DNA from: a virus
Strand: one strand, 5' to 3'
IMG/VR virus record: IMGVR_UViG_3300005529_000001
Span: 144,882-208,881 of that record
Length of the DNA: 64,000 nt
The notes beneath the pieces are model-generated. The model searched no databases. It was not told the origin of the DNA and worked only from the letters and a program-made list of their open reading frames with translations. Shown here piece after piece: positions 13,413-63,951 of this stretch (within the stretch, counting starts at the first letter, position 1; the number at the start of each line of letters is the position of its first letter). A program made the translations under genes and the position numbers.

Positions 13413-13443
13413 GTCACCACCCTAACACGTCAGGGGGTGTTTT

Positions 13444-14186: not shown

Positions 14187-14566
14187 CAGTTAACCTTCTT
14201 GGACGCCTCGGCCCGTTCTTTCTCAGTCACGCCCTCGCTCAGCTTGCCATGCCCAATGTTCCAGGTGCAACCCGCGGCTTCGCTGACAATCAAGCTCCAA
14301 AACTTGCCCTTGACCAGTTTCATCACATCACACAGCTCAGCATGGATGCCCGAAGCGTTGTACTCTTTCTTCTCTTCCTCGGACTTCGGAGCTCGATGGA
14401 TGGACAAAGCAACTACACACGCTGGGGACTCCTCGTACTCGAGGATCATGCACCGTGCTAGCGGGCCGACCGTCCACCCACGCCTGATCATCTTTGCACA
14501 CAAAGCTTCGGCAAAGTTCGTGTTTGACGTAGTAAACCAGACATACCAGATTGCTGACAAGTTCAC
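14186..14566 (-). CDS. Hypothetical protein
   Basis: 126-aa ORF. Stop/start overlap with neighbours. Confidence 0.35.
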   Translation of the reverse strand: MNLSAIWYVWFTTSNTNFAEALCAKMIRRGWTVGPLARCMILEYEESPACVVALSIHRAPKSEEEKKEYNASGIHAELCDVMKLVKGKFWSLIVSEAAGCTWNIGHGKLSEGVTEKERAEASKKVN

Positions 14567-15000
14567 CCCTGCTTCAAGTGATCAGTTGATGGCATCTCGT
14601 ATTGAGCCATTGCGACCTCACCCTGGAACGCTTTGCCGATGGCCTCGCTAATGAACATCTTGCGGTGGTAACGTTGTCGATAGTAAGCGGCATGAAAGAC
14701 CTCGGTCTCTCCCTCTTTCCTAGGAACCCTGACCAGGTGATCGATGCTCTTTCCCCAACCGCCAAAAGAAACGAAGTCATCGATGCTCAGCGTCCGGTAA
14801 CCGAGACCGCTGTAAGCCTTTTCCGTCAGTTGCCACTGGTCTAGCAACCTGTCAAAGCCGACGCACTCTCCCATGTAGATCATGGAGACAACGCTACCCA
14901 TCTCCGCGCCTGCAAGGACATACGCTTCGATGATCTCATCATCTCGGAAGACCCGGACGTCCTTGCCAAACCGGTTGCGCCACCACCGTTTGAGTCCCAT
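14563..15000 (-). CDS. Hypothetical protein
   Basis: 145-aa ORF with 4-nt overlaps on both sides. Confidence 0.35.
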   Translation of the reverse strand: MGLKRWWRNRFGKDVRVFRDDEIIEAYVLAGAEMGSVVSMIYMGECVGFDRLLDQWQLTEKAYSGLGYRTLSIDDFVSFGGWGKSIDHLVRVPRKEGETEVFHAAYYRQRYHRKMFISEAIGKAFQGEVAMAQYEMPSTDHLKQG

Positions 15001-15206
15001 CAGACTGCCTCACCGATCTCTTCATCGATCGCAGCACAAACGAGCTCACCAGCCGTGGCAGGCAAGCTGACTGCGACCTGGTCCTTGAGCCGGTACAGGC
15101 TCATGACGTGTCTCAGCTTCATCGTGTAAACTTGCCGAGCTCGCCGGCTCTCGCTCCAGATGAGCGCAAAGACCAGGAACCCGATCACCGCCACGATGAA
15201 GTGCAT
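15000..15206 (-). CDS. Small membrane protein
   Basis: 68 aa with one TM helix (HFIVAVIGFLVFALIW). TGTAGGGTTAGGC immediately upstream. Confidence 0.3.
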   Translation of the reverse strand: MHFIVAVIGFLVFALIWSESRRARQVYTMKLRHVMSLYRLKDQVAVSLPATAGELVCAAIDEEIGEAV

Positions 15207-15510: not shown

Positions 15511-15525
15511 TCTCGTAAGTATCGA

Positions 15526-28627: not shown

Positions 28628-28636
28628 GTAAGTAGG
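28628..28636 (-). promoter_or_regulatory. CCTACTTAC motif plus TATAGT and GAGGT SD upstream of 28232-28588
   Basis: Minus-sense CCTACTTACctgcggtgggctgtggTATAGTgcccatcaGAGGTaaccATG. Confidence 0.3.
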
Positions 28637-30286: not shown

Positions 30287-30964
30287 TCACGCCGGCGCGC
30301 CGCCGCCTCCTGGGCCCGCCTCAGCAGAGCCGCTTGCACGAGCAGCGGGCGGTGCTGGGAATTTGTCGTCATCGACTGACTGCCTATCCTGGCCGGGGAC
30401 CATGCCATGATCGTCACGCATGACGTTGTCAAACGCTTGCAGGACCTCGTCGTTGTAGTTCTTCTGCAAGAAACCACGCGCTCGGCGCATCAACGTAGCC
30501 TTGACTTCAAGCAAGCTGTCATAGTTCTCAATGAGCCTGACGACATCATCACAGAACTTGGCGACATCAACGTCTTCCATCGTCAGCTTCCCAGCGTCAT
30601 CGTCACCCATCATGTCGTCAGCACCGGGAGCAGCATCATCAGCGCCCTGGGCATCCTTGTCTCCCTGGCCCGCCTCGATCAGGACTCCCTTGACCAGGTC
30701 ACGCCAGTCCATCGCTTCCATCTGTGCGGCGCTGCCGGGACCCTGGAGCGAGTTGTCTGTCTTCTTGGAATCGGTCTCGTACTGCATCAGGTACTTGTCG
30801 ACCTGCTCATCCAGCGAGTCACCGCTAGCGCCCGTCACGTGTGCCTGGCTGTCATCGGGCGCTTCCTCAGGAGCCTCCTCGAGGACACGAAGGTAAGTGT
30901 CCATCCGACCGCGTTTTGCTTCGGACATGATCTGACGGAGATCACCCATCCTTAATCGCATCAT
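30287..30964 (-). CDS. Acidic protein with CTS-like N-terminus
   Basis: MMRLRMGDLRQIMSEAKRG. Asp-rich, 225 aa. Parallels MMRLTLGQLRNLLSEE (55226-55450). Confidence 0.45.
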   Translation of the reverse strand: MMRLRMGDLRQIMSEAKRGRMDTYLRVLEEAPEEAPDDSQAHVTGASGDSLDEQVDKYLMQYETDSKKTDNSLQGPGSAAQMEAMDWRDLVKGVLIEAGQGDKDAQGADDAAPGADDMMGDDDAGKLTMEDVDVAKFCDDVVRLIENYDSLLEVKATLMRRARGFLQKNYNDEVLQAFDNVMRDDHGMVPGQDRQSVDDDKFPAPPAARASGSAEAGPGGGGAPA

Positions 30965-31719
30965 GAGCCCCTCTTCTGTCCCTGGCCCATCACCTGTGCC
31001 AGCTCCTCAGCCTTCTTGAAACGTTCTTCGATGACATCGAAGTTAAGCTCTTTCATCATCGCAACCAGGTATGACTCCTTGTCGGTCTGGTAATCTTTGA
31101 AGTACGAGTGCTCGTGCATGTCAATGACGACCAACGGGTAGAACCCGAGCATCACGTCTTGTGAGTTGTTGCTGACCATCGTGTTGATGTAGCGTTGGAG
31201 GTACATGTGATAGCCGCAGACAGCCCATCCCTGCCCGCTGCCCATCGCGCAAGCCATGAAGTCTTTCTGCCAGTCGTTGAATGTTCCAAAGTCACGTTCT
31301 AACCTCAGGTACGTCATCGAGTCCATGTAGACTTCGCTGTGAGGATCGAAGCAGTTGGCAAAGTACAGCTCGTGAAGCCACACTGCATTGAGGTTGTATG
31401 TCTCATCCAGCTTCAGGCTACGGTAATCGCTGTGCTTGCTGTCGGCTTGCGCTCGTTCTGCGGTGTCGAGCTCGCTGCTGACGCGGTTCAGCGTCTCGAT
31501 GTGGCCCTTGTAAAGAGCCTCGTGAGCGTCCTTCGTCTTCTGTGACGCAAACTCGGTCACCTGACTGTACTGCTTGGGTTGCGCGACGTACGCCTCGTCA
31601 AGCGGTTCGGGTCCCGGGATCTGCTTCTTCAGCGACTCTTTGATGATGCCAGCGAGGTCAACACCCTCTGCAAGACCCAGCAAGCCGTCACCTGTCTTTC
31701 CGTTCGAGCTCATGGCCAT
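30961..31719 (-). CDS. Fe/Mn superoxide dismutase-like protein with ~45-aa N-terminal extension
   Basis: ERDFGTFNDWQKDF (cf. ERDFGSVDNFKAEF), VIDMHEHSYFKDYQTDKESYL (cf. [20 protein letters not shown]) and AHEALYKGHIETLN (cf. HHTKHHQTYVNN). The four metal-ligand positions are occupied: His, His, Asp, His. Confidence 0.5.
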   Translation of the reverse strand: MAMSSNGKTGDGLLGLAEGVDLAGIIKESLKKQIPGPEPLDEAYVAQPKQYSQVTEFASQKTKDAHEALYKGHIETLNRVSSELDTAERAQADSKHSDYRSLKLDETYNLNAVWLHELYFANCFDPHSEVYMDSMTYLRLERDFGTFNDWQKDFMACAMGSGQGWAVCGYHMYLQRYINTMVSNNSQDVMLGFYPLVVIDMHEHSYFKDYQTDKESYLVAMMKELNFDVIEERFKKAEELAQVMGQGQKRGS

Positions 31720-33244: not shown

Positions 33245-33805
33245 CTATCGCCGGGCCAGAGCTTGGTAGATGGCTTCCTGCAGGGTCAACACCTCGACCC
33301 CAGCGCTTTTCAGGAGATCGATCCCATCAGTGATCCGATACGGGATCTCATAGACGACTCTGGCAATCTCCGCGTTGACGATCAGCTTCGCACACTCCTT
33401 GCACGGGCTGTTCGTCACGTACATGTGCTTCGGTCTGGCAAAGTTGTAGTCGCACTTGACGAGAGCGTTGACCTCAGCGTGGACAGTGCCGCTCTTCCCG
33501 CGTTCGAGCGATTCAACGTGATTGGGACCGCCCTTCCACATCCCGTTGTACCCTACGCTGAGCATCTGCGTGTTGTTCGACGAAACGACGATCGCTCCCA
33601 CTTTCAATGCCGGGTCGATCGAGCGCAAAGCGATTGTCTTTGCGACCTGCATCCAGACTGACGGCCAGGTCGGACGTTCGGGTTCCTTGTCCTCAACGAG
33701 AACAGTCAAGCAGAACTTGCACGTCTGCCCACCGGCATCATTCTCCACCCAATGATGGAAGATGTCTTTGGTGTTTGCTAGACACGCTTCGTTTAGGTTT
33801 CCCAT
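33245..33805 (-). CDS. dCMP deaminase (zinc-dependent cytidine/deoxycytidylate deaminase family) with N-terminal extension
   Basis: HAEVNAL (Zn His/Glu) and SPCKECAKLI (PCxxC). Resembles T4 Cd. Confidence 0.75.
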   Translation of the reverse strand: MGNLNEACLANTKDIFHHWVENDAGGQTCKFCLTVLVEDKEPERPTWPSVWMQVAKTIALRSIDPALKVGAIVVSSNNTQMLSVGYNGMWKGGPNHVESLERGKSGTVHAEVNALVKCDYNFARPKHMYVTNSPCKECAKLIVNAEIARVVYEIPYRITDGIDLLKSAGVEVLTLQEAIYQALARR

Positions 33806-34980
33806 CAAGCCCCCACCATGGATTGGAACAACTCGCTCTCAAGGCGATGGATTTCCTGGCCTAGCGCTTTGCCCGAAAACCCCTGTGCCATCAGGGGCTC
33901 ACCCCTGAAAGGCTCAGAGCCCAGGTACCGCAAGAAAGCATCGAACTCTGCGTTCGAGGGCATCCCGCGAGCACGAACGTACTCAACGTACATCGTGAAG
34001 GCGTCATCTTCTGACATGCCCAGGGCTTTCTCGGCCTTGCGGAGCTTCAGAGCGGTGTCCTTCGTGATGTTACGGAGCCGGAGCAAGAACGTGACTTGCG
34101 CGACCTCGTCAACCGAGTACTTCAGGTGAAGCAGCTTTTTCCCCAACGTCTCAAGGTTCTCATCATCCAAGATGAGAGCTAGCACGACCGGGACGGTGTT
34201 GGAATCGACCCCACGCGTAGACACGAGGTTGTCCAGGTACGTTGACACTTTGAGCCCGGGCAGCACCCGATCCCACAACCCCAACGACGTCATGAGGTTC
34301 ATCAACCGTTGTGGTTTCTCAGCTGCTACGATCGACTTGACAAGCTCGTCCCGGACCCGTTCAAACGAGACGCCATCAAGGTTGTTGTCACGCTGAATGG
34401 CTGCGAACGTTTCTTTGGAGATCTCAAAGCCGAGCTTGACTGCGAACCTGATGGCTCGCAACACCCTGAGCCTGTCTTCGGCAAACCTGTCCTCGGGACG
34501 TCCAACCGTCCTGATGACCTTGTGACGAATGTCATCGAGCCCGCCGACTAGGTCAACGACCTCTTGCGCGGTGATGTCATAGAACAGAGCGTTGATCGTC
34601 AGGTCCCGACGTTGCACGTCTTCCTTGATCGTCGCGAAGCGTACCTGTGGGTGGCGACCCGCGCTCAGGTCCTCACGGAACGTTGCGATCTCGTACTCCT
34701 CGGAAGGAGACCCATCGTGGGTGTACGTCCTCGTTCGGATGACGCCGAAAGCCTTGCCGACTGCATCCGTTAGCCATCGTCCCGTGGTGTGGAGCAAGCG
34801 CTCCACTTGGTCAGGAGTGGCATCAGTTGCGAGGTCGAAATCCTTGGGCTTCTTGCCCATCACCGCGTCACGCACTGCACCACCGACCAGGTGCAGTGCG
34901 TAGCCATTCGTATGAAAGAGCATCGCCAGCGATTTGACATCGCTGTGCAAGTCAATCTTGAGAGGCTGACGGACTACCAT
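33805..34980 (-). CDS. cca: CCA-adding enzyme / poly(A) polymerase-family tRNA nucleotidyltransferase
   Basis: Class II head domain LVGGAVRDAVMGKKPKDFDLATDATP. 391 aa. Confidence 0.7.
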   Translation of the reverse strand: MVVRQPLKIDLHSDVKSLAMLFHTNGYALHLVGGAVRDAVMGKKPKDFDLATDATPDQVERLLHTTGRWLTDAVGKAFGVIRTRTYTHDGSPSEEYEIATFREDLSAGRHPQVRFATIKEDVQRRDLTINALFYDITAQEVVDLVGGLDDIRHKVIRTVGRPEDRFAEDRLRVLRAIRFAVKLGFEISKETFAAIQRDNNLDGVSFERVRDELVKSIVAAEKPQRLMNLMTSLGLWDRVLPGLKVSTYLDNLVSTRGVDSNTVPVVLALILDDENLETLGKKLLHLKYSVDEVAQVTFLLRLRNITKDTALKLRKAEKALGMSEDDAFTMYVEYVRARGMPSNAEFDAFLRYLGSEPFRGEPLMAQGFSGKALGQEIHRLESELFQSMVGA

Positions 34981-35012: not shown

Positions 35013-35594
35013 TCACTCTTTCGCGATGTTCGCTCGTTTGTCAACGGCAAGATGGTGGCGAAAGCAACGCGGCTCATAGAGCTCCGCGCCACCGACCTGG
35101 ATCTCCTCGCCGTCTGTCTGTTTCTTGTGAGTGTAGAAAGCGTCACGCCCACATTCAGTGCAGACCGCTGCACATTTTTCGACATGCGTTGCCCAAGCCA
35201 TCAGCTTCTCGACCTCGTGGAATGGCTTGCCCAGGTATGACAGGTCCAACGTTGAGACCACGACATCGATGCCGAGCTGGTAAAGGTAGATCAGGACGTC
35301 GGCGACGCCCGGGATCATGAACGCTTCGTCAACGGCAACCACCTCGGGCATCTGTTCCGCTTCCGCAAGCGCGCCCAAGATGTCTGACCCCTCCTTGACA
35401 AGGGTAGCATCGTGTTTCCAGCCCGAGTGACTGACAACCTCAGTGTTGCTGTACCTGGCATCGATCGCGGGCTTGAAGACCTGGATTCGCTTGTGTTGGT
35501 ACTTGGCACGCTCAAGAGCGAGCAACAGTTTCGTCGTTTTTGACGAGAACATTGCGCCCGCGAAGACCGTCAGCGTTGGGTTCTGCCCGCTCAT
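35013..35594 (-). CDS. tdk: Thymidine kinase
   Basis: P-loop FAGAMFSSKTTKLL, VDEAFMIPG, C-terminal Zn ribbon CxxC...C. Confidence 0.75.
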   Translation of the reverse strand: MSGQNPTLTVFAGAMFSSKTTKLLLALERAKYQHKRIQVFKPAIDARYSNTEVVSHSGWKHDATLVKEGSDILGALAEAEQMPEVVAVDEAFMIPGVADVLIYLYQLGIDVVVSTLDLSYLGKPFHEVEKLMAWATHVEKCAAVCTECGRDAFYTHKKQTDGEEIQVGGAELYEPRCFRHHLAVDKRANIAKE

Positions 35595-36148
35595 GCGAAC
35601 CTATGTTCCAGGATGACGAAGGGAGCGCGGCACACCGAGTCATACCTTGCTGCAGCCTCAAGGGCTAACGTGATTCGTTTCTTTGGGTCCATTTGCATGT
35701 CTCTTGTCGCGTACATTGCCCCGTTGGCAACTTGCGCGCCCACACCGATGCAACAGTAATCATCCTGAGGACAACCAACATCAAAATCTTCTTCGATGGA
35801 ATAGAGCTTGCCGTTGTATCCCACCAGCAACCCAACCGAGTGAAACTCTTCTTCGTCTTCCCTCTTCAGAGATCCTTTTTCCTTGTGCAACTCTCTGACA
35901 GCATCGATGAAGTTGATGACCATGTAAGCCATGTCATCGTGCTTCTTGGGCTTGTCAGGTGCTTCGAAAGCGTACCGCAACAGCTGTCCCACACGGAAGC
36001 TTCCCGCAAAACCTATGATGAAGTCACCGTTGATGAAGACTTTTTCGTCAGCCCGGCCGAGAACAGAGGTGCCTTTCGTATCGGATGCCAACGAATCAGC
36101 ACCCATATAGATCACGCCGTTCTCGACCAAGCCAACGATACAGGTCAT
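35591..36148 (-). CDS. HslV-like N-terminal-Thr peptidase (proteasome beta-type Ntn hydrolase), copy 1
   Basis: MTCIVGLVENGVIYMGAD, ADEKVFINGDFIIGFAGS and CIGVGAQVANGAMYA align with HslV TTIVSVRRNGHVVIAGD / [20 protein letters not shown] / IAIGSGGPYAQAAARA. Thr follows the initiator Met. Confidence 0.6.
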   Translation of the reverse strand: MTCIVGLVENGVIYMGADSLASDTKGTSVLGRADEKVFINGDFIIGFAGSFRVGQLLRYAFEAPDKPKKHDDMAYMVINFIDAVRELHKEKGSLKREDEEEFHSVGLLVGYNGKLYSIEEDFDVGCPQDDYCCIGVGAQVANGAMYATRDMQMDPKKRITLALEAAARYDSVCRAPFVILEHRFA

Positions 36149-36152
36149 GGAC

Positions 36153-36722
36153 TCAGTTCCGGTTCTTCACCACCAGCGTATCGAACGGTGGAGCACAGCC
36201 TGCGTTCTTGGTAGAAGCTTCGAGTGCCATGAGAACACGCTTCTTGGCGCCGCCCCACATTTTCTTGGTCGCTTCGAACGAACCGAGCGCCAGCTTGCTG
36301 CCGCTGCCGACAGAAGCAAACTTCTCATCGCCTTCGACCAGCTGAAAGTTACCCTCGAGCGTGTAGAGATGGCCACGATAAGCGACCAACATCGCGCCTT
36401 CAAAGCAGATCTCACCGTTACCGCCGAATGGGCTGTTGTCAGGACCCGCTGCGTCGAGCTTCTTGAGGCCCTCGCGGATCGCTGGAACTAGCTCGGTCAC
36501 TAGGAACTGCCTATCATCGCCGCCTGCCTGGATGGGCAGCTCGATGCCATGTTTTAGCGCGTCCATGACCTTGGGCAGGCCGCAGACACCAAAGCCCACA
36601 TCGCCCTTTGCAAAGATCTTGGGCTCCTTGAGCAAGGTCCTATTGAGACCGCCATCCGTGGCCGCCCGATCTCCGCCGAGCCACACCTTGTTCCCATCAA
36701 CCAAACCGACTATGCAGGTCAT
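36153..36722 (-). CDS. HslV-like N-terminal-Thr peptidase, copy 2
   Basis: MTCIVGLVDGNKVWLGGD, KIFAKGDVGFGVCG, GSGSKLALGS. Paralog of 35591-36148, 4 nt upstream. Confidence 0.6.
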   Translation of the reverse strand: MTCIVGLVDGNKVWLGGDRAATDGGLNRTLLKEPKIFAKGDVGFGVCGLPKVMDALKHGIELPIQAGGDDRQFLVTELVPAIREGLKKLDAAGPDNSPFGGNGEICFEGAMLVAYRGHLYTLEGNFQLVEGDEKFASVGSGSKLALGSFEATKKMWGGAKKRVLMALEASTKNAGCAPPFDTLVVKNRN

Positions 36723-36904: not shown

Positions 36905-37672
36905 TCATCCTTCCTTTGTGTTGTACGGCGAGTCTGGGTAGAGTTCACGGTATTGTGACTTGGATACGGCGATCTCTCCCGTCTTGGTAAAATGGTCTAC
37001 CAAGTAGAAGTGTCGCTCGTAGACGTGGAGACTGCCTGCGCTCCAGTGAATGTCACCCTCAGGCAACTGGAGATCCTTGGCAAGGTTGGCAAGGACGGTA
37101 TACTGCCAGGCTCGATCGTTCTTGTAACCCAGAACCGCGTCATTGGATCGCATCTGGACCACGGCATGAAGAGCACCATCACGGACTAGGTACTGTACCG
37201 CGTTGGTGCACATGAAGTCGCTCCGGCCATCGATGTTGTACTCCTCCCACATCGAGGGACGGGTGTAGATGACAACAGCCCTCCGGCTCTCCGGGTTTTT
37301 CTTGAGCTCGGCCAGCACTTTTGTGTACTGGCCACCGTTCTCTGGGCTGTAGGTCGTCCACCCGTAGTTGCTGTTGATGGTACCGTCCTTAGAAGCGACA
37401 GCTTTCCACACCGTGGGTGCCCCGCCCGGGATGTCATTGACGTTCCGGCTCTGGCTCATGTACCACATCTCCTCGCGGTGGATGTAGTCCCAGTCAACCT
37501 TGCCGAACAGGGCGTCGTCCGAAGCGATGAAGTTAGCCCCAACGATCTCAATCGTCCTCTTGCCAACCAGAGAGGTCATCGACGCTTCCCGGTTGACGCT
37601 AGTGAATTTCTCCTCGGCAAGAAGAGAAGCGAATTGGTCCCTGATCGACTGCGTTGAATTGTAGAGCGTCAT
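36905..37672 (-). CDS. Thymidylate-synthase-family pyrimidine C5-modifying enzyme (divergent; ThyA or dNMP hydroxymethylase-like)
   Basis: FMCTNAVQYLVRDGALHAVVQMRSNDAVLGYKND aligns with ThyA [33 protein letters not shown]: catalytic Cys, RSxD and Asn retained. IHREEMWYM matches IHELLWFL. The folate/N-terminal regions diverge far more than between true ThyAs. Confidence 0.6.
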   Translation of the reverse strand: MTLYNSTQSIRDQFASLLAEEKFTSVNREASMTSLVGKRTIEIVGANFIASDDALFGKVDWDYIHREEMWYMSQSRNVNDIPGGAPTVWKAVASKDGTINSNYGWTTYSPENGGQYTKVLAELKKNPESRRAVVIYTRPSMWEEYNIDGRSDFMCTNAVQYLVRDGALHAVVQMRSNDAVLGYKNDRAWQYTVLANLAKDLQLPEGDIHWSAGSLHVYERHFYLVDHFTKTGEIAVSKSQYRELYPDSPYNTKEG

Positions 37673-38622
37673 TTGTTAAGCTTCATCTTTCCGACCCAAT
37701 CCCAGTTGTCTTCGTACCATTTGACGGTCCGATCCAGACCCTCCCAGAACCTGACCAGTGGGACATATCCTAACAACTGTTGTGCTTTTGTCACGTCGGC
37801 TTGGGTGTGCATGACATCGCCGGCGCGCCAGGGCGCGTTGCAGACCTGAGCACCTGGATAACGCTTGCCCAGCTCGATGATGATGTCACGGTTAGTCGTT
37901 CGGTCTCCACATGCTACGTTGATGCACTCAGCATTGAGCAAACCTGATACGTTTCCAGCCTTGACACACGCATCGACAACGTTGTCAACGTAACACATGT
38001 CGCGGCTCTGGCTGCCGTCGCCGTCGCTACGAAGAGGGATGCCCTTCTTGATCGCTGTCAACCAGGCTGACACCGCGGTTGAATACGGGCTGTCACCCAG
38101 CTGGTTGGGTCCAAAGACATTGAAGAAACGCAAACAAACGCTGTCAAGCTTGTAAAGATCGCGGTACAAGACCAGGTAATCTTCAATGATCGACTTCTGA
38201 AGAGCATATGGTGACTTGGGGTTCTTACGCTCGTTCTCGCTGGTGGGTAGTATGTCAGCCCCACCGTATACCGACGAGCTAGACGCGAAAACGAACCGCT
38301 TGACGTTGTCCCGACAGGCATCCATCAACGCCAACGTCCGGGACACGTTGACGTGGTTGGTTTCTAGCGGGTGCTCGACTGAGTACGACACCCTGGGAAC
38401 AGCCGCCAAGTGAAAGATGACATCGTACCTGCCCTGCTTTATCTCGTGCAATACATCAGCATGAGCAAAATCTTTCGTGATTACCGCCTGGCCATGAGGT
38501 ACAAACTCCAGGTGACCGTTGGACAGATCGTCAACAGTGTCAACATCCCACCCTTCGTCCAAGCAACGCTTGACAAGGTTCGATCCGATGAAGCCCGCGC
38601 CGCCAGTGACAAGGACGTGCAT
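37669..38622 (-). CDS. NAD-dependent nucleotide-sugar 4-epimerase (GalE/WbpP-like extended SDR)
   Basis: VLVTGGAGFIGSNLV Rossmann motif, SSSSVYG, catalytic YALQK. 4-nt overlap (translational coupling) with the TS-family gene. Confidence 0.75.
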   Translation of the reverse strand: MHVLVTGGAGFIGSNLVKRCLDEGWDVDTVDDLSNGHLEFVPHGQAVITKDFAHADVLHEIKQGRYDVIFHLAAVPRVSYSVEHPLETNHVNVSRTLALMDACRDNVKRFVFASSSSVYGGADILPTSENERKNPKSPYALQKSIIEDYLVLYRDLYKLDSVCLRFFNVFGPNQLGDSPYSTAVSAWLTAIKKGIPLRSDGDGSQSRDMCYVDNVVDACVKAGNVSGLLNAECINVACGDRTTNRDIIIELGKRYPGAQVCNAPWRAGDVMHTQADVTKAQQLLGYVPLVRFWEGLDRTVKWYEDNWDWVGKMKLNK

Positions 38623-39178: not shown

Positions 39179-40612
39179 TCAGGTAAGTAGGCCCATCCTG
39201 CGCATGGCGGCGGGAGTTGTTGCCTCGTAGGAGCACCGCTTCCTGATGACTTCCAACAGCTTCTGGTTGATGTTGTGACGGGCATTCTCCCGTGATGGAC
39301 ACTGAACACGCCCAATCGACCTGTCAAGCAAATCAACCAAATTGATGAGATTTACTTCACCCAGCACGTATTGGCTCACCCCAGCCTCCTCAGCCAGGCT
39401 CGAATACTCGTAGTTGTCGAGCCACAGTGGCATGCATCCCAACTCGACGCATTCTCGAGCAGCTGTCCCGCCATACGGATCCTTGTTATAGAGGCCCAGA
39501 GCGATGTGGGAGTTCCGTGCCACGTACTTGTACTCGTCACGGTTGAAAGTGTCATCCGTCAGCTTGACGTAGCCGTTGGCCCCACATTTCTCTTCGAGCT
39601 CAGCGTTAGAGAACTTGAAATTTGGATTGCCACACACTACGACGTAGTCCCGTCGCCGTTGTCGCAGCTGGGGAAGGATATCGAACATGAACTTCATACC
39701 GTTGGTATAGTCGCCGCTCGACGGAGAGATCCGATTGGGGAAGAACAGGACGCACTTTCCCTCCGTCTTGGCTTTCCATTCCGCCGCAGAAAAACGGACG
39801 TTCTTCATGTCAGGTTCCAGCAACGTCTCCGCCGAGGAGTACCCGTCGTCCCAGGGCATTGACTTGGCACGAACGTCATCAACCACGTCCTGGGTGAACC
39901 ACTTGCCCATGCTGTCAAAGAACTGCAACATCGCTGACTCGCACTGCCAGAAGTTGTAGTCGGCCCGGAGTGCGGCTTCACACTGGCCAAGCCACAGTGA
40001 ACACTCTTGCGGGAACTTGGGGACTTCAGGCACATCTACAAAGTGGGAGTGGACGTAGAACTTGGGTTGGTAACCACCGTTGATGTGAAACATCGCCTTG
40101 AAGTTACGAAGGTGCATCGGATCATTGATGTAGACCGCGTCGTACTTCAACTCTGGGTGCTTTTTGTGATTGTGGATCCCGATGCTCAGGGAGACCTTGT
40201 TGAAGTTGAGATCGTACCTGGTCGCCAGCGCGTTTGCCATTACTTCGTGCTGGATATAGTTGAGCCGGCCCCGGTCTTCTTTGGTCGGATCGACATAACC
40301 ATAGAGGCAATGCCAGTCAAGATCCGGGTTGACGATCCACGGATAATCAACGCACTGGCTAGCGTTTTCATAGTAGGTATCGAACAGCTTCGGTCCCATC
40401 ACGTCGATCTGGAGATCTGGGTTGCGGCGCAACATCTCTCGCACCCGCCCCATCACCATCTGCCACCCGCTGTCGCAAGCCAGGTCAAACTTGTTGTGTT
40501 TGTAGTTGATGTTACTCAGCTGAGTCTGGACTAGCAGGCGCATGCTTGAACCTTTCCCTGATGTCGGCGTGGTGTTCATCGCAGTGTGCACGTGCCTGCT
40601 CAAAAAGCGCAA
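39179..40612 (-). CDS. Putative glycosyltransferase (GT-B-like C-terminal domain)
   Basis: DPYGGTAARECVELGCMPLWL resembles the GT4 Ex7E motif (EGFGLxxLEAMAxGxPVI). 477 aa. The true start may be the internal Met at 40543 or 40579. Confidence 0.35.
   Translation of the reverse strand: MRFLSRHVHTAMNTTPTSGKGSSMRLLVQTQLSNINYKHNKFDLACDSGWQMVMGRVREMLRRNPDLQIDVMGPKLFDTYYENASQCVDYPWIVNPDLDWHCLYGYVDPTKEDRGRLNYIQHEVMANALATRYDLNFNKVSLSIGIHNHKKHPELKYDAVYINDPMHLRNFKAMFHINGGYQPKFYVHSHFVDVPEVPKFPQECSLWLGQCEAALRADYNFWQCESAMLQFFDSMGKWFTQDVVDDVRAKSMPWDDGYSSAETLLEPDMKNVRFSAAEWKAKTEGKCVLFFPNRISPSSGDYTNGMKFMFDILPQLRQRRRDYVVVCGNPNFKFSNAELEEKCGANGYVKLTDDTFNRDEYKYVARNSHIALGLYNKDPYGGTAARECVELGCMPLWLDNYEYSSLAEEAGVSQYVLGEVNLINLVDLLDRSIGRVQCPSRENARHNINQKLLEVIRKRCSYEATTPAAMRRMGLLT
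39183..39191 (-). promoter_or_regulatory. CCTACTTAC promoter-like motif upstream of 38656-39177
   Basis: Minus-sense gcCTACTTACctgacATG. Confidence 0.3.
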
Positions 40613-42272: not shown

Positions 42273-42304
42273 GGCTCTATCCTAACCTACCGCCCTGCAA
42301 ATCG

Positions 42305-42312
42305 ATACTTAG
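42305..42312 (+). promoter_or_regulatory. ATACTTAG promoter-like motif upstream of 42319-45432
   Basis: Plus-sense cgATACTTAGagagtcATG in the divergent intergenic region 42273-42318. Confidence 0.3.
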
Positions 42313-50554: not shown

Positions 50555-50812
50555 TCAACGCCTGTTTCGCCAAGCTGCCCGTTTCGCAACTTCTTCGTGC
50601 GTGGTGCCCTCTTCCTTACAGCGGGTGTCGTAGAGCACATCCAAGATCCCGATCACAAATCCGCTTGCGAGTGCACCGTGCGTGCAGCTATCCAGCACCT
50701 CAAGCACCTGGAGCGTTGATGGCGGGCAATCCCACTTTTCGATCATCAGCTTCGCCGTGTCATCCAGCTGTGAATTTGGCGCTCGCAGCAGAACCTCTAT
50801 TGCTTCTTTCAC
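50555..50812 (-). CDS. Hypothetical protein
   Basis: 85-aa ORF. 4-nt overlap with the UXS-like gene. Confidence 0.3.
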   Translation of the reverse strand: MKEAIEVLLRAPNSQLDDTAKLMIEKWDCPPSTLQVLEVLDSCTHGALASGFVIGILDVLYDTRCKEEGTTHEEVAKRAAWRNRR

Positions 50813-51807
50813 TTCGTCACTTTTTGGATGTACGCGATCGTCTTATCAAGGCCCTGATCCAATGTCACGACTGGGTTCCATCCCAACAATGTTTTTGCTC
50901 TGCTGATGTCCGGGCATCGGCGTCTCGGATCATCGATGGGCAGGTCGCGCATCTGAATGTTGTTGTTGATACCGTTTGAGTCTAGAGGAATGTTGTGTAC
51001 CTTGTTGATCACCTTGCACGCCAGATGCCAGACAGTAAACTCATCTGGGTTACCCAAGTTGACAGGACAGCGTGGGTTCTCTTTGAGAGCTCCCATTGCA
51101 ACGATGCCCCGGATCAGGTCATCAACATAACAAAACGACCGCGTCTGCCTACCCTCGCCATAGACCGTCAGCTGTTCGTTCTTGAGAGCTTGGCGGATGA
51201 AATTGCTGACGACACGCCCATCAAACGGGTCCATGTTAGGACCGTAAGTGTTGAAGATCCTGACAAGACGAGCGTCAACTCCCTCCTGATTGAGGTAATC
51301 AAAACATAGAGCTTCCGCAGCGCGCTTTCCCTCGTCATAGCACGAGCGTGGACCGTATGAGTTGACACAACCCTTGTAATCTTCCCGCTGCGGTGACACA
51401 TCTGGGTCGCCATACACCTCGCTGGTTGACGCATGAACTAGCACTGCGTCATAGTGATCAGCGAGTCGCAGCATCCGTTCAGTGCCCACAACGCAGGTCA
51501 ACATCGTGTGGATGGGCTGTTCCTGATAGCGTGGTGGCGAAGCAGGACACGCAAAGTTATAGATGAGATTGAGCCCACGGTGGTGGTACTGCCATCCGTT
51601 GACATGGCTAGCGATCGCCGGGTCGGTGATGTTGCTCTGGGCGAAGCTGAAGTTCTCGTAAGAACACAGGTCTTTCAGGTGAAGAGAGCCCTTGTCAGAC
51701 GAGCTGAAATCATCAACGCCGAGGACCCTGTCGCCCTTCTCAAGGTGGTGTTTCGCCAGGTGCGATCCCAAGAACCCCGCTGCGCCCGTCACCAGAACGT
51801 TCTTCAT
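50809..51807 (-). CDS. UDP-glucuronate decarboxylase (UDP-xylose synthase, UXS)-like SDR
   Basis: MKNVLVTGAAGFLGSHL and YGDPDVSPQREDYKGCVNSYGPRSCYDEGKRAAEALCFDY closely parallel UXS ([40 protein letters not shown]). Confidence 0.75.
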   Translation of the reverse strand: MKNVLVTGAAGFLGSHLAKHHLEKGDRVLGVDDFSSSDKGSLHLKDLCSYENFSFAQSNITDPAIASHVNGWQYHHRGLNLIYNFACPASPPRYQEQPIHTMLTCVVGTERMLRLADHYDAVLVHASTSEVYGDPDVSPQREDYKGCVNSYGPRSCYDEGKRAAEALCFDYLNQEGVDARLVRIFNTYGPNMDPFDGRVVSNFIRQALKNEQLTVYGEGRQTRSFCYVDDLIRGIVAMGALKENPRCPVNLGNPDEFTVWHLACKVINKVHNIPLDSNGINNNIQMRDLPIDDPRRRCPDISRAKTLLGWNPVVTLDQGLDKTIAYIQKVTK

Positions 51808-52147
51808 CTGCAGACACTACCCCGTGTTCTACGTCCTGTTCAGGGTACGCAGATCGGAAGATATCGAGCAACTCACGTGCCAGAGTCGCGCCCTGTTCAC
51901 CCTCAAGCTGTTGGTTAAACCAGAACATGAACGTGCTCTGGATTGTGTGATAAGCGTGTTCATACGCGTCCTGTTCGGGCATCCTGATTATGAGGCCCTC
52001 AACGAACCTTGATAGGATCGATAACGCTTCCGATTCATACTCTCTCTCCCTGTTTGGGTCGTCAGGAGAGCAGTATCCCAGCGGGTCACGTTCGAAAAGG
52101 TGTTTGGTGAACTCTTCTAGGAGTTGCGAGCGACTCTTCTTCATCAT
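51740..52147 (-). CDS. Hypothetical protein
   Basis: 135-aa ORF. The C-terminal 68 nt overlap the UXS start. Confidence 0.3.
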   Translation of the reverse strand: MMKKSRSQLLEEFTKHLFERDPLGYCSPDDPNREREYESEALSILSRFVEGLIIRMPEQDAYEHAYHTIQSTFMFWFNQQLEGEQGATLARELLDIFRSAYPEQDVEHGVVSADEERSGDGRSGVLGIAPGETPP

Positions 52148-52154
52148 GTCAAGC

Positions 52155-52682
52155 TCACGGCGTGACGGTGAGTGTTCCCTTCATCATCATGTAATGGCCG
52201 GGGAACGTGCAGATGTACGGGTACTTGCCCGCCTCGGGCGCGGTAAACGTGACCTCAGTGCTCTCGCCCGCCTTTGCCTGCGGCGTGAACGTCATCAGGT
52301 CATGGTCCCTGACATCAACGTATCCCGCTCTCTCGCCCATGTTGAGACCGTGAAGCGCAACGCTCGCTTCAGTCCCAGGCCTCACCAGTGCCCAGTTGTG
52401 CTGCATGGTGGTCATCGTCGAGTTGTTCTTGAAAACGAGGTGAACCTCGGCACCCGTTGGGACCGTCAGAGTTACCTTGTCAAACCTCATCTCGTTGCCG
52501 ACGCTAGCAACTTGCAACTCGACGTGAACAGCCGGTGGTTTGGGAGCCTCAACGACGGACGGTGTCGGGGCTGGAGCCACAACGGTGGGTGCGGGTGGAG
52601 CAACGTTCTGCTGGGGAGCGGGCTTTCCGCAAGCGAAACAAGCGACAGTCGCTAGAGCGATCAGGTGAGCTTTCATGGCCAC
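52155..52682 (-). CDS. Azurin-like type-1 copper protein (cupredoxin), lipoprotein with Pro/Ala-rich linker
   Basis: YPYICTFPGHYMMMKGTLTV matches the azurin Cys-x2-Pro-Gly-His-x4-Met copper site (YMFFCTFPGHSALMKGTLTL). GNEMRFDKVTLTV and MQHNWAL match the azurin N-terminal region including the His46-equivalent ligand. Signal plus Cys lipobox, then an APAPTPSVVEAPKPP linker. Confidence 0.75.
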   Translation of the reverse strand: MAMKAHLIALATVACFACGKPAPQQNVAPPAPTVVAPAPTPSVVEAPKPPAVHVELQVASVGNEMRFDKVTLTVPTGAEVHLVFKNNSTMTTMQHNWALVRPGTEASVALHGLNMGERAGYVDVRDHDLMTFTPQAKAGESTEVTFTAPEAGKYPYICTFPGHYMMMKGTLTVTP

Positions 52683-52713
52683 AAAGTAGGCCCCCGCACC
52701 GCTCGTGTTCAGC

Positions 52714-52722
52714 CATACTTAC
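52714..52722 (+). promoter_or_regulatory. CATACTTAC promoter-like motif upstream of 52728-53687
   Basis: Plus-sense agCCATACTTACccatcATG in the divergent intergenic region with the azurin gene. Confidence 0.35.
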
Positions 52723-52727
52723 CCATC

Positions 52728-53687
52728 ATGAAACCACAGCTGACAGAAGCTCACGTTGCCGAGATCATGGAACACTTGCTGGAGCGTTTCGGCGAGCCCA
52801 TCGGCGATGCACAGGGTGATCGCCAAGGGATCCCATCCAAGGGCGGTCGCAAGGAAAAGATGGGCAACCGGGGCTTCGGTGCGAAGCTTGAACACGTCGG
52901 GCTGCCCGGAGCGTGTGGGGGTTGTGGCGGCATGATGGGAATCGAGGGCGACACTTGCACTAACTGCGGCGAGATGCCCAACGCCCTGGAGCCCTCTCCC
53001 AGCCCGCCCAAGACTGCAGGCAACAGCGTCGCCATCGTTGTCAAGGGATCAACACCCGAGGGTGGCAGCCGCGGGGGCAAGTTCGCCCAGGGCCTGAAGG
53101 TCAAGGACATGGACGGCATCCCATCAACGGGATCAGGCCGGGGCACGCAAGCTCCGGCATCCCCTCCGAAACCGATGCCCAAGGCTCCGGCTCCCGGTCC
53201 AGCTGAGCCCACCCCCATGCCAGCAACGCTCGATCAGGCTGACCTTGCGGGTGCTGATGAGCTCGACGAAGAGTCGACAGAAGACAAGCAAGAGCGTCTG
53301 CACTATGATATCGACCGTGATGGCGAGGTTGGTGAGAGCCCGGAACACCGTGAGAAGGTTCTTGGTCACGAAGACGATGAGCTCGACGAAGATGCGATGC
53401 CAAGCGGCAGCTCTTCGCCCCCTCCTCCCCCGTCTAGCAGCTCTCCCGCTCCAGCACCAAAGCCACCGTCGCCCCCGCCATCATCAGGTGGATCATCACC
53501 CCCTCCCCCAAGCGGCGGGTCGTCATCGTCTCCGCCGCCCGCTGAGGAGATGCAGGAAGACATGGACCTCGATGAGGTCACGCCTCCCGGACGTGAGAAG
53601 CAAGTCAAAGCCCTGAAAAAGAAGGGCGACGTCAAGAACCCATGGGCAGTCGCTTGGTCTTCCTACAACAAGAGTCACAAGAAGTGA
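52728..53687 (+). CDS. Intrinsically disordered Pro/Ser/acidic-rich protein with CTS-like N-terminus
   Basis: Start set at the ATG (MKPQLTEAHVAEIMEHLLE), 5 nt downstream of CATACTTAC. The GTG extension would overlap the divergent azurin start. SSSPPPPPSSSSPAPAPKPPSPPP repeats. Confidence 0.45.
   Translation: MKPQLTEAHVAEIMEHLLERFGEPIGDAQGDRQGIPSKGGRKEKMGNRGFGAKLEHVGLPGACGGCGGMMGIEGDTCTNCGEMPNALEPSPSPPKTAGNSVAIVVKGSTPEGGSRGGKFAQGLKVKDMDGIPSTGSGRGTQAPASPPKPMPKAPAPGPAEPTPMPATLDQADLAGADELDEESTEDKQERLHYDIDRDGEVGESPEHREKVLGHEDDELDEDAMPSGSSSPPPPPSSSSPAPAPKPPSPPPSSGGSSPPPPSGGSSSSPPPAEEMQEDMDLDEVTPPGREKQVKALKKKGDVKNPWAVAWSSYNKSHKK
53395..53545 (+). repeat. Coding low-complexity repeat encoding SSSPPPPP/SGGSSPPPP units
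   Basis: Direct reading within 52728-53687. Confidence 0.35.
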
Positions 53688-55212: not shown

Positions 55213-55221
55213 GTAAGTATG
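55213..55221 (-). promoter_or_regulatory. CATACTTAC promoter-like motif upstream of 54009-55193
   Basis: Minus-sense CCATACTTACccccAGGAGccgtgcacgcATG. Confidence 0.35.
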
Positions 55222-57956: not shown

Positions 57957-58892
57957 TCACTTCGGGGGCATGCGGCGATGGATCTCCTGCATTGCAAGGT
58001 CGTACTTTAGGGGCTCCTGGAACCAGGTTGACAGCTCCAACAGCTGCTCACCCGTCATGTGTCGCATCGCGGGACCCAACATGGTCTGTATGACTTTGGG
58101 CGAAGTCAGGATGAACCTTCGTAGTTTGTCGAGCCTCTGGAGACGCTCGTCGTTCGGGTTGAGCTTCTGGATGTCTTCGATGTGGGAGGCTTTCCAGTCA
58201 AGCGTCTTTGATACGAGACGCATGATGTGATCCGCGACGGCGGGGGTCACGCTCTGGTAACGTTTGCGATGCAGCCATTTGAAGACGCGGTTTATCGTCC
58301 ACTTAGACTCCCACGTCACAACGTGAAGCATCCTCTCGCGTTCTAACATCTCCAGGTGCTCTGGGAAGACGAGTGAGTCTTCTGTCACCGCGACCATGCC
58401 GTTGTAGATGTCAAATCGTGATAGCTGTTCGACGATGGGCGCCACGTACTGGGTGATGACTTGGACACGCGCATCCCCATCAACTAGGTACTCAATCGCA
58501 GTGTTCGTCACTGTTGGAGTGATCTGTAACCCAGTCAACGACAACAACTTGGGAGAGTGCGTGAACGCCGTCAGGTTCTTCACGTGTGGGAACCAAACGT
58601 CAATGTCACCGCATCCAGCGTTTTGAAAAGGGCCAAGATCTGCGTCAAGTCGCTTTGGAGCACCTAGATGCATGCGAACTGCGTTCCATAACTCACCTTC
58701 ATCCGGCATGGGTTCCAACAACCCAAACTGGTTCCGTGCCAGGATGTTGGCAAAACCACCCGCGATATAACCACCGTTCTCGAATGCTGCTTCGAGCAAG
58801 GTCCTCGTCGTACGCTTCAGCGTAAAATTGTTAGCCATCATCTGAAGGAATGGCTTTGGAAGCTTGACGGTCTTGAAGTTCAGATCTTCCAT
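57957..58892 (-). CDS. Hypothetical protein with possible nucleotidyltransferase-like GGx...GDIDV motif
   Basis: GGYIAGGFANILARNQ...GCGDIDVWF fits the GG/GS...DxD minimal NTase pattern. 311 aa. Confidence 0.35.
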   Translation of the reverse strand: MEDLNFKTVKLPKPFLQMMANNFTLKRTTRTLLEAAFENGGYIAGGFANILARNQFGLLEPMPDEGELWNAVRMHLGAPKRLDADLGPFQNAGCGDIDVWFPHVKNLTAFTHSPKLLSLTGLQITPTVTNTAIEYLVDGDARVQVITQYVAPIVEQLSRFDIYNGMVAVTEDSLVFPEHLEMLERERMLHVVTWESKWTINRVFKWLHRKRYQSVTPAVADHIMRLVSKTLDWKASHIEDIQKLNPNDERLQRLDKLRRFILTSPKVIQTMLGPAMRHMTGEQLLELSTWFQEPLKYDLAMQEIHRRMPPK

Positions 58893-62475: not shown

Positions 62476-63151
62476 CGCTCAGGGGCGTCGTTGACGGGCT
62501 CGCGCACTCGGCAAACTGAGGGATCTGCCATGGTTCAGCACAACCCGTTGAAAACCTGATGAGGACATCCTTGTAGAGGTAAAAGTTCGGGCACGTGATC
62601 AGCTTGTTTGGGCACGCGATCCCGGCACGCCACCGGCACGGGCACTGGGCAGTGGGAAGCTCTCCCTTGTTCCAACACCCGACGTTTCCAGACTCGACCG
62701 GTTTTGGCAACACCTGCTGCGTTCCATCGCAATTCAACACCCAGTCACCTGCAATTTTGACAACAAAAGACTTCTTGTCGATGGGCAAGTTAATGTGCGT
62801 GCCCTTCTCACAGTATGAGACTTGAGCAAACCCATCTGGGATGACTCCATCTGGGAAGTTTTTTGCCAAGCACGCTTGGACTTCGTTCGTCAGACGATCG
62901 ATTAGCTCTCCGGAGATGTTCTGTCCTGAGGGATCAAATGGGGTCCCCTCGGGAGTCACCATCGTCGGATTGACGTCATACCTGTCAAATTCATGTTGAG
63001 TGTAACCCAACCACACCTCGTTGCAAGAACCCGCATCGCTCGATGCTATGTCACCGCTGCTGCAACTGGTCACGGCTGTTCCCGTTGACCCGTAAAGAAC
63101 GGTCACGAACAACACGGAAAGACCACCGACAATCCAGTTCTTTAGCTTCAT
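62426..63151 (-). CDS. Secreted Cys-rich protein
   Basis: Signal peptide MKLKNWIVGGLSVLFVTVLYGSTGTAV. 15+ Cys. TATGATACAAT -10-like element upstream. Confidence 0.4.
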   Translation of the reverse strand: MKLKNWIVGGLSVLFVTVLYGSTGTAVTSCSSGDIASSDAGSCNEVWLGYTQHEFDRYDVNPTMVTPEGTPFDPSGQNISGELIDRLTNEVQACLAKNFPDGVIPDGFAQVSYCEKGTHINLPIDKKSFVVKIAGDWVLNCDGTQQVLPKPVESGNVGCWNKGELPTAQCPCRWRAGIACPNKLITCPNFYLYKDVLIRFSTGCAEPWQIPQFAECASPSTTPLSDGSDPNNGTPQPIQDF

Positions 63152-63951
63152 CCGAACATTGTATCATACGCGCCATCGATCAAGCGGTTCGGGACGATAG
63201 GCCTGTTGAGCCAGTGTTCCTCTTGGTCCATGATCGAGTTCGTAAATGAACTACGGACAAACTTGTAACGACCCAGGACATGGTCAGCGTCCTCCCACTT
63301 GATGTAAAGGCCCTCCATCAGTTCGCTGTGGTCGGTGTGACCCCACGCCTCAGCAGCTACGACTCCAGCTGCTTCGCATGCGTTGTTGAAGTTGAGGATA
63401 CGTTCCGTAGTGACAAAATGGCTACGATGGATGTAATCGCTGAGATCTTTCAGGTGTTCAAACTCACCCACGCCTAGAACCTTGACGGGATACGCAACGT
63501 CGCTAGCAAAACGAAGCAGCTTGTCACGGGCTGGCGTAGACAGGAACTTGTCGGTCTCGGTGTCCAGGACGTCGAACTCCATGAAGTAGTGGGGCAGCGC
63601 ATCGTAGAACATGGTGTGTTTGGCATACATCCACTCGCCATACATGATGTAACGAGTGCCCAACAGCTGGCGTAACTCGCTCTGACGAGCGTTGGCCCAC
63701 GTCTTTAGCAGGTCGAAGTGCTTTTCACGAGGTCCACCACGTAGGTAGTGCCCGCGTGACTGGATCAGTAGTTTGCCATCTTCATCGAAGCTGATGCCTG
63801 CATTGGCACCGTCCATTTTCTCTTCGAGAACGAGACGCACGCCACGAAGATCGTCCCAAGGAACAGCTTCAAGATCATGATCTCCGTGTTGGAATCGTGA
63901 TCCTCTTACATGTGCTGTCCGCGGATACTTTCGCATCTCAGGAGAGATCAC
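63148..63951 (-). CDS. ATP-dependent RNA ligase (Rnl-type, KxDG)
   Basis: N-terminal KYPRTAHV and EEKMDGAN (motif I KxDG) as in the DraRnl/NgrRnl-type RNA ligase family. 267 aa. Confidence 0.6.
   Translation of the reverse strand: MISPEMRKYPRTAHVRGSRFQHGDHDLEAVPWDDLRGVRLVLEEKMDGANAGISFDEDGKLLIQSRGHYLRGGPREKHFDLLKTWANARQSELRQLLGTRYIMYGEWMYAKHTMFYDALPHYFMEFDVLDTETDKFLSTPARDKLLRFASDVAYPVKVLGVGEFEHLKDLSDYIHRSHFVTTERILNFNNACEAAGVVAAEAWGHTDHSELMEGLYIKWEDADHVLGRYKFVRSSFTNSIMDQEEHWLNRPIVPNRLIDGAYDTMFG

Follow-up and report, generated by a model that had tools for sequence, protein, structure and literature searches.

Introduction

Cyanophages encode PetE, a plastocyanin thought to sustain photosynthetic electron flow. 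Among cellular copper carriers, azurin is marked by a Cys3-Cys26 disulfide and by the Gly45 carbonyl as a fifth, weak ligand, Laz of Neisseria joins a lipoprotein signal, an AAEAP-repeat linker (the H.8 epitope) and an azurin domain, and the rusticyanin gene is arranged together with cyc2. Plastocyanins have also been found in viruses of ammonia-oxidising archaea (PMC12998224), and plastocyanin/azurin-family genes on thaumarchaeal integrated elements (PMC6563490). In Chloroflexus, alternative complex III (ACIII) passes its electrons to auracyanins (PMC3150298). Here we report on a cupredoxin gene on the minus strand of a 64,000-nucleotide stretch of virus DNA (positions 144,882 to 208,881 of IMG/VR record IMGVR_UViG_3300005529_000001; hereafter "the window", to which all positions refer unless a contig is named). 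An initial annotation, made from the window alone, had described its product as an azurin-like cupredoxin of Laz-like architecture. Our analysis finds an auracyanin-like protein, judging from its sequence and predicted fold, whose gene was inserted singly between conserved genes of what is very probably a huge phage.

Results

Architecture of the cupredoxin

The open reading frame (ORF) at 52155..52682 (minus strand) is real, and it contains both strings quoted by the initial annotation, the C-terminal YPYICTFPGHYMMMKGTLTVTP and the internal MQHNWAL. Read from a GTG at 52682 it encodes 175 amino acids (aa). The public gene call, P0001, lies two codons inside this version and starts at ATG 52676; the coding sequence (52155..52676, minus strand) then comprises 173 aa and a stop, and its N-terminus, MKAHL..., resembles the homologue N-termini in a 34-sequence alignment. 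Residues are numbered here from ATG 52676 (173 aa); the numbering of the initial annotation is higher by two.

A predicted signal peptide with a lipobox occupies residues 1-16 (52629..52676, minus strand), as judged from the alignment and from lipobox rules applied by eye. It reads MKAHLIALATVACFAC, followed by GK, with a basic n-region, a hydrophobic core and the lipobox Cys. Cys16 (codon 52629-52631, minus strand) is invariant in 34/34 aligned family members (consensus ...AGC followed by GK). A second lipidation candidate is Cys13 (codon 52638-52640, minus strand), which fits the residue pattern of PROSITE PS51257 (pattern only, applied by eye) better than Cys16, as the latter has a Cys at -3 that the pattern disallows. 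Either Cys16 or Cys13 may be the lipidation site of the phage protein. Residues 17-49, GKPAPQQNVAPPAPTVVAPAPTPSVVEAPKPPA (52530..52628, minus strand), form a tether of 33 residues, 70% of them Pro, Ala or Val, which is recognized by its composition, by its variable length and sequence among homologues and by AlphaFold2 confidence (predicted local distance difference test, pLDDT), the mean being 53-78 over 10-residue blocks spanning residues 11-50. The remainder, residues 50-173 (52158..52529, minus strand), is the type-1 copper cupredoxin domain, which is modelled as a Greek-key beta-sandwich with a pLDDT of 92-98 and was delimited with the additional help of Foldseek and of phmmer against 2AAN. 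Sequence, alignment and AlphaFold2 thus agree with the proposed order of lipoprotein signal, Pro/Ala-rich tether and cupredoxin. The likeness to Laz holds for this architecture; a phage-specific origin of it does not, for 33/33 aligned homologues, cellular and phage-borne, share it.

The copper site is complete. His93 (codon 52398..52400, minus strand), the first ligand and equivalent of azurin His46, and Cys156, His161 and Met165 (codons 52209-52211, 52194-52196 and 52182-52184) of the copper loop C156-TFPG-H161-YMM-M165 (52182..52211, minus strand) align with the copper ligands of azurin and the auracyanins in HMMER alignments and are invariant in the family. MQHNW pairs with azurin MGHNW (Gly45-His46) and YICTFPGHYMMMKG with azurin YFCSFPGHWAMMKG (Cys112, His117, Met121), and the auracyanins align with both segments in the same way. 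All of the family-invariant residues are kept in the phage protein (35/35, including the four ligands and the lipobox Cys). The Pfam model PF00127 (Copper-bind) scores 54.8 bits against a cut-off of 21.2, and its E-value of 1.4e-14 places the match far beyond chance. The claim of a type-1 copper cupredoxin with azurin-like ligand spacing is therefore upheld. Of the azurin positions named for comparison, His46, Cys112, His117 and Met121 have their equivalents; Gly45 has none, its place being taken by Gln92.

An auracyanin-like protein

The label "azurin" fares less well. The azurin equivalog model TIGR02695 (NCBIfam) reaches 65.9 bits, below its cut-off of 105.1. Rusticyanin (TIGR03095, 35.9 bits, cut-off 146.7), plastocyanin (TIGR02656, 16.1 bits, E 0.012, cut-off 87.85), CopI, halocyanin and other NCBIfam models all score far below the azurin model. 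In a phmmer search of the PDB the first three matches are 2AAN, 1OV8 and 6KOL, with E-values of 4.6e-28 for auracyanin A (2AAN), 1e-20 for auracyanin B and 2e-18 for the Roseiflexus auracyanin; azurins come after them, at 1e-14 and weaker. Foldseek yields almost the same ranking: its first three matches are 2AAN, 6KOL and 1QHQ, auracyanin A superposing with a TM-score of 0.94, a root-mean-square deviation (rmsd) of 1.1 A and 45% identity. Identities to auracyanins are 36-45%, and azurins follow with TM-scores of about 0.86 and identities of 22-32%. Among 552 PDB matches at E<=1e-3, the top 50 listed are all auracyanins or azurins.

Single residues point the same way. Gln92 precedes the first His ligand as it does in auracyanins, where azurin has Gly45, and the cupredoxin domain contains only one Cys, the ligand, so that an azurin-type Cys3-Cys26 disulfide is absent. 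The C-x4-H-x3-M spacing of the copper loop is that of azurin and of auracyanin A alike. On the model score, the sequence and fold rankings, Gln92 and the missing disulfide, we regard the phage cupredoxin as auracyanin-like and not as a member of the azurin family, by sequence and modelled structure.

A true Laz-like azurin, supplying electrons to denitrification enzymes of the host, can draw on the identical ligand spacing, the HNW at the first His and the strong azurin superposition. It has to contend with the failed equivalog cut-off, the gap in identity to auracyanin A, the lack of the disulfide and the Gln in place of Gly45. Moreover, no nir, nor or nos genes lie near the host homologues in two annotated loci; in the cellular loci examined the cupredoxin follows a putative Cyc2-type protein and a second cupredoxin (see below), and the denitrification context suggested initially finds no support. 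We consider this reading hardly credible.

A single-gene insertion in a probable huge phage

The window is an exact match to contig ena:ERZ27279688:k141_1055159 (369,506 bp), the window minus strand being the plus strand of that record. Two exact anchors relate record positions (r) to window positions (w), r = 382729 - w and r = 13364 - w, and they differ by 369,365, that is 369,506 - 141. In a k=141 assembly such a difference, reflecting a 141-bp end overlap, identifies a circular contig, and the window spans its end junction at about w 13223-13363. The carrier is probably a complete circular element of 369,365 bp, collinearity across w 13.4-42 kb being assumed. About 84 kb of the 369-kb genome was inspected, with partial annotation of window 13.4-42 kb.

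Genes are tightly packed and mostly on one strand, and many ORFs are without a family match. Those recognized include a DnaE polymerase, ThyA-like and ThyX thymidylate synthases, thymidylate and thymidine kinases, a dCMP deaminase and a dUTPase-like protein; a 5'-3' exonuclease, DNA glycosylases, three DNA methylases and an HNH endonuclease; a polynucleotide kinase-phosphatase (PNKP), an RNA ligase and a CCA-adding enzyme; and a Gad2-like protein, two NUDIX hydrolases, a phage lysozyme and an Fe-S assembly protein. DnaE is also present, in the same surrounding gene order, on three IMG/VR viral contigs, with identities of 89%, 71% and 64%. To cultured-phage relatives the identity of DnaE is only 26-30%, and neither a 24-kb DNA segment nor a 1037-aa protein finds a match among GenBank phages. 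Phage-type gene content and the syntenic IMG/VR relatives bear out the impression of a non-cyanobacterial phage-like genome, and we consider the 369-kb carrier to be very probably a huge phage.

The cupredoxin gene is an insertion in this genome. The related viral contigs L053, L054 and L055 keep a 394-aa gene, the divergent 319-aa gene, the 135-aa gene, an epimerase and DnaE; by tblastn they are without the cupredoxin. In L053, the closest viral relative, 38 bp separate the start of the divergent gene from that of the 135-aa gene, and a DNA alignment shows the window to have about 560 bp extra (52148..52712), made up of the cupredoxin ORF, a 36-bp leader and a 7-bp spacer. The conserved right flank is the 135-aa gene (51740..52147, minus strand), which has no assigned function, has homologues in L053-L055 and starts 7 nt past the cupredoxin stop. 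The left flank, identified by synteny, is the divergent, low-complexity 319-aa gene (52728..53687, plus strand). The cupredoxin is an accessory single-gene insertion, a "moron" or auxiliary metabolic gene, between conserved phage genes.

The closest homologue is P0018, on a contig of 1.5 kb (L049:451-996), with 77% identity across the domain. The flanks of this copy (L049 3-437 and 1007-1480) are 71-72% identical to window 37669-38622, the second epimerase gene, and 36905-37672, the ThyA-like gene; they also match L053-L055, and in the window the two genes abut at 37669-37672. These flanks place the cupredoxin of a related phage at another site. Other copies (P0007, P0010 and P0060), of Polyangiaceae type, sit on the short contigs L048, L050 (GC 49%) and L057 (GC 44%), the flanks of which match neither the host cluster described below nor the 369-kb phage group. 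P0013, a near neighbour of the low-GC copies, is of host type, and a metagenome scan with P0010 for longer contigs of the low-GC lineage returned one distant relative only.

Over the domain, dN/dS between P0001 and P0018 is 0.15, with dS of about 1.4 and hence near saturation; between P0010 and P0007, two copies on low-GC contigs, it is 0.02. The third-position GC content (GC3) of the cupredoxin is 0.695, compared with 0.674 +/- 0.064 for 42 phage genes and 0.87-0.95 in the three host-context copies that were measured. Given dN/dS and GC3, the gene looks like an old, maintained resident rather than a recent capture or an assembly chimera. An intact gene under purifying selection, with carrier-like composition and at two sites in related phages, argues for a selected function and against accidental cargo.

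These data bear on whether the gene is phage-borne at all. The 369-kb circle might be a megaplasmid, a Borg-like element or a chimeric assembly with host DNA: no virion gene was seen in the part inspected, IMG/VR assignments are computational, and Borgs, which are large non-viral elements, are reported to carry cupredoxins (PMC10654088). Yet both flanks of the insertion are conserved in the three IMG/VR viral contigs, the related contig L049 has its cupredoxin between phage-type genes, GC3 fits the element and not the hosts, the gene content is of huge-phage type, and the annotations read contain no plasmid replication, partition or transfer domains. We judge a non-phage carrier to be improbable. 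A PHROG "portal protein" match was rejected, since it concerned the NUDIX domain of the two NUDIX hydrolases.

Phages often carry single-gene insertions for lipoproteins that alter the cell surface. The cupredoxin, inserted singly and variably present among related phages, could likewise be a non-redox envelope lipoprotein, acting for instance in superinfection exclusion or receptor masking, with its cupredoxin domain as a mere scaffold. A scaffold would not need a copper site, whereas all four ligands and every family-invariant residue are kept, under strong purifying selection (dN/dS 0.02-0.15). Such a role is very unlikely in our opinion, and the copper carrier remains the better explanation.

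Cellular homologues and a Cyc2-type cluster

With one genome per species, the nearest cellular homologues (40-72% identity) belong to Polyangiaceae, Polyangiales, Sandaracinaceae and other Myxococcota metagenome-assembled genomes (MAGs), followed by Rhodothermales and Bacteroidota (27-46%). The closest are found in Polyangiaceae MAGs (57-77%). Plasmids yielded only homologues at <=39% identity.

At ten myxobacterial loci the auracyanin-like cupredoxin is the third gene of a conserved cluster (L044:7626-11055; also L002-L006, L009, L011, L013, L015 and L046, in each about 2.5 kb upstream of the match). The first gene encodes a protein of about 490 aa that has a signal peptide, a single CxxCH near the N-terminus and an aromatic residue at the C-terminus, the latter typical of outer-membrane proteins. 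The second encodes a lipoprotein of about 285 aa combining an amicyanin-type C-x2-H-x2-M cupredoxin (PF00127, E 2e-4) with a CarboxypepD_reg domain, and the fourth, present at 8/10 loci, a small Cys-rich protein. All ten of the 490-aa proteins carry the signature A-x-P-x-F-A-R-[QK]-[TY] ... CxxCH ... PxL. Keffer et al. (2021; PMC8406198) describe this signature, taken with a signal peptide, a single CxxCH and a length above 365 aa, as diagnostic of Cyc2, an iron oxidase in which a cytochrome is fused to a porin. The cluster of a putative Cyc2 and two cupredoxins suggests an unstudied module for extracellular electron uptake or iron oxidation in myxobacteria. Homologues of a 145-aa gene downstream in the hosts and of the remaining cluster genes are absent from the window, and capture of a multi-gene cassette by the phage was accordingly rejected.

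Upstream motif and transcription

The motif CATACTTAC (52714-52722, plus strand) stops 5 nt short of ATG 52728, where the divergent 319-aa gene starts, and occupies the same place in L053. As the initial annotation had it, the motif is real; its spacing and its conservation in L053 suggest that it serves the divergent plus-strand gene, not the cupredoxin. The core TACTTAC occurs six times in the window against 1.17 expected, and all six copies face a nearby downstream ATG: at 5382 (minus strand; ATG 5366, 15 nt), 15515 (minus; 4 nt), 28628 (minus; about 39 nt), 39183 (minus; 5 nt), 52716 (plus; ATG 52728, 5 nt) and 55213 (minus; ATG 55193, 19 nt). Four of the six ATGs match a listed ORF start or a public gene call; those after 15515 and 39183 match none. 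In addition, GATACTTAG is found 6 nt before ATG 42319 (plus strand). The wider pattern [CG][AC]TACTTA[CG] recurs 4-40 nt before the next ATG, always oriented with the gene, at 5382-5390, 15515-15523, 28628-28636, 39183-39191 and 55213-55221 on the minus strand and at 42304-42312 and 52714-52722 on the plus strand. From position and orientation, the motif may be a promoter-like element of the phage with a start site just downstream, in which case a spacing of 4-6 nt would give leaderless transcripts. The 319-aa protein itself (52728-53687, plus strand) is rich in Pro, Ser and Gly, contains a Cys cluster (CGGCGG...CTNCG), has no family match, and its ends are conserved in L053.

For the cupredoxin, CCTACTTTG (52682..52690, minus strand), 5 nt upstream of its ATG, matches the motif in 7/9 positions and is tentatively taken as the gene's own start signal; the same 9-mer is also present elsewhere in the window. 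Scanning the surroundings of the cupredoxin for sigma-70 promoters and terminators gave nothing above the shuffled background. As there is no terminator between the cupredoxin and the 135-aa gene, and the gap between them is 7 nt, the cupredoxin would be transcribed together with the phage minus-strand genes.

Other genes of the element

A UDP-sugar pyrophosphorylase, two paralogous NAD-dependent sugar epimerases (about 28% identical), the ThyA-like protein, the dCMP deaminase and the thymidine kinase co-occur in the window; the genes listed for this set are 2074-3147, 36905-37672, 37669-38622, 50809-51807, 33245-33808 and 35013-35594, all on the minus strand. Such a combination would fit sugar-hypermodified DNA bases. 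RNA ligase, CCA-adding enzyme and PNKP constitute a T4-type tRNA-repair set (63148-63951 and 33805-34980, both minus strand, and L051:6426-7415), and the Gad2-like protein is encoded at 57957-58892; tRNA repair and Gad2-like protein are likely counter-defence genes.

Two adjacent genes (35591-36148 and 36153-36722, minus strand) encode HslV/proteasome-like peptidases (phrog_1040, E 1.7e-23). The HslV-like assignment goes back to the first of them, which Pfam Proteasome matches weakly (E 3.6e-4), and no partner ATPase appears in the annotations read. Near the contig junction, an ORF at 11353-12273 (minus strand) matches the PHROG transposase family phrog_10081 (E 2e-18). In the relative L055 the DnaE match is split, residues 9-219 mapping to 10001-10648 and residues 209-1269 to 12013-15090; the roughly 1.36 kb between them (within L055:10001-15090) is possibly an intein or a homing-endonuclease insertion.

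Discussion

Our preferred reading, held with moderate confidence, is that the gene encodes a working type-1 ("blue") copper electron carrier of the auracyanin/azurin branch, which a huge phage captured from a Polyangiaceae-type myxobacterial lineage and kept as a single-gene accessory insertion. After transcription with the phage minus-strand genes, the predicted product would be exported by Sec, cleaved and lipidated at the lipobox Cys, and held in the periplasm by its tether of about 33 residues. There it would bind one copper through His93, Cys156, His161 and Met165, as the conserved ligands and fold predict, and by analogy with its relatives would shuttle single electrons between periplasmic and membrane redox partners. 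The third place in the host Cyc2-type cluster makes its most likely job that of a carrier from an outer-membrane entry point to a terminal oxidase: electrons would arrive from the Cyc2-like protein, with the partner cupredoxin, and pass on towards the oxidase. The phage version would supplement the host's own carrier or take its place, and respiration and ATP supply could continue as host gene expression fails, in parallel to the part assigned to cyanophage plastocyanin in photosynthetic electron flow. On this reading, a periplasmic electron shuttle sustaining host respiration during infection is the most likely function.

A wider version of this scenario, which we put forward tentatively as a possibility short of an expectation, is that a clade of huge phages shares a mobile cupredoxin cassette plugging into a Cyc2-type, iron-oxidase-like electron-uptake chain of Polyangiaceae-like myxobacteria. 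If true, it would provide a viral accessory gene for Cyc2-linked respiration and a viral carrier of the auracyanin/azurin class, for neither of which we found a report, and it would bring to light, in predatory soil bacteria, an unstudied module of Cyc2 and two cupredoxins.

Several observations weigh against the electron-carrier reading. Copper binding, redox activity and expression of the phage cupredoxin are predictions from sequence and model. The first cluster gene is called a Cyc2-type cytochrome-porin from the host gene neighbourhood and the published motif, and its product has no Pfam, NCBIfam or PDB match, as single sequence or as profile, so that the porin part, expected to be a 16-strand beta-barrel, is unmatched. 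The window contains none of the partner genes of the host cluster; in the phage the cupredoxin stands by itself. Its start codon is preceded by no visible Shine-Dalgarno sequence, and virion genes are missing from the inspected part of the genome, as mentioned. Resolution is poor in a tree from 124 alignment columns, where P0001 and P0018 are sisters in 118/200 bootstraps; the clade of all four non-host copies has 22% support, and we accordingly make no claim of one acquisition. Finally, the phage has a GC content of 56% (46-62% in related phage contigs) and the candidate host loci 63-73%, a mismatch that makes the present host uncertain.

A protective role has been proposed for Neisseria Laz and the cupredoxin-like CopI. 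The phage protein, too, could act as a periplasmic lipoprotein that buffers copper or quenches oxidants during infection. Its tethered layout resembles Laz, its copper loop is Met-rich (YMMMKG), and the CopI model NF051440 gives a weak match (E 6e-5). The window also encodes the Fe-S assembly protein and, at 30961-31719 (minus strand), a redox/metal accessory protein of 252 aa that matches the C-terminal domain only of Fe/Mn superoxide dismutase (E 7.5e-19). Set against this, the match to CopI falls well short of its cut-off (22.8 bits vs 280), a His/Met-rich extension is absent, and the host homologues adjoin the cytochrome-porin and a cupredoxin and not cop or cus genes. A complete type-1 site and an auracyanin-grade fold point to electron transfer instead. 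We therefore consider protection from copper or oxidative stress unlikely, and an electron carrier the more plausible product.

Searches for viral relatives found little. There was no match by tblastn in 50,697 GenBank phage records and no relative in IMG/VR, whether scanned with the single protein or with an alignment of the family; a BFVD fold search gave only distant matches (TM-score about 0.4), and blue copper proteins occur in giant viruses. The literature searched contains no report of a viral gene of azurin or auracyanin type; "azurin" matches were rejected, as they concerned the dye azurine. That a virus may carry a host-derived electron carrier is known, and the viral cupredoxins of which we are aware are plastocyanins. 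New are the class of cupredoxin, its lipid tether, its carriage by a huge phage, the probable host lineage and a Cyc2-type setting. Our findings extend viral electron-carrier genes to the auracyanin/azurin class, to huge phages without cultured relatives and, probably, to myxobacterial respiration. They also point to a candidate host (Polyangiaceae-type) where the phage group had none, and draw attention to the conserved cluster of a Cyc2-like protein and two cupredoxins in Polyangiaceae-type bacteria. Being small and easily expressed, the protein lends itself to direct tests of copper binding and redox potential.

Compared with the viral plastocyanins, the phage gene is likewise a host-derived, single-domain type-1 copper carrier serving as an accessory metabolic gene. 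It differs in belonging to another cupredoxin class, in its predicted lipid tether, in its myxobacterial-type host and in a respiratory, Cyc2-linked context in place of photosynthesis or ammonia oxidation. With azurin of Pseudomonas and Alcaligenes it shares the fold, the four side-chain ligands, their spacing and the HNW at the first His, but azurin is soluble and the phage protein a predicted lipoprotein with a tether. Laz has the same layout of lipoprotein signal, linker and cupredoxin; the phage linker is without AAEAP repeats, and its domain fails the azurin equivalog cut-off.

The auracyanins A (2AAN) and B (1QHQ/1OV8) and that of Roseiflexus (6KOL) share with it the ligands and the Gln before the first His. 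Auracyanin B is a membrane-tethered periplasmic carrier (PMC3150298), and the phage protein likewise has a predicted lipid tether. In contrast, auracyanins come from Chloroflexota, and the phage gene from a Myxococcota-type family whose cellular members lie in a Cyc2-type cluster. Rusticyanin of Acidithiobacillus ferrooxidans is a periplasmic cupredoxin working with Cyc2 (PMC8406198). The gene arrangement of the cellular homologues is analogous to that of rusticyanin with cyc2; the phage protein falls below the TIGR03095 cut-off, its cellular homologues belong to neutrophilic-type myxobacterial hosts in which iron oxidation is hypothetical, and the phage has the cupredoxin alone. The step we propose would have its parallels in the chain from Cyc2 to rusticyanin in Acidithiobacillus and in the step from ACIII to auracyanin in Chloroflexus (PMC3150298).

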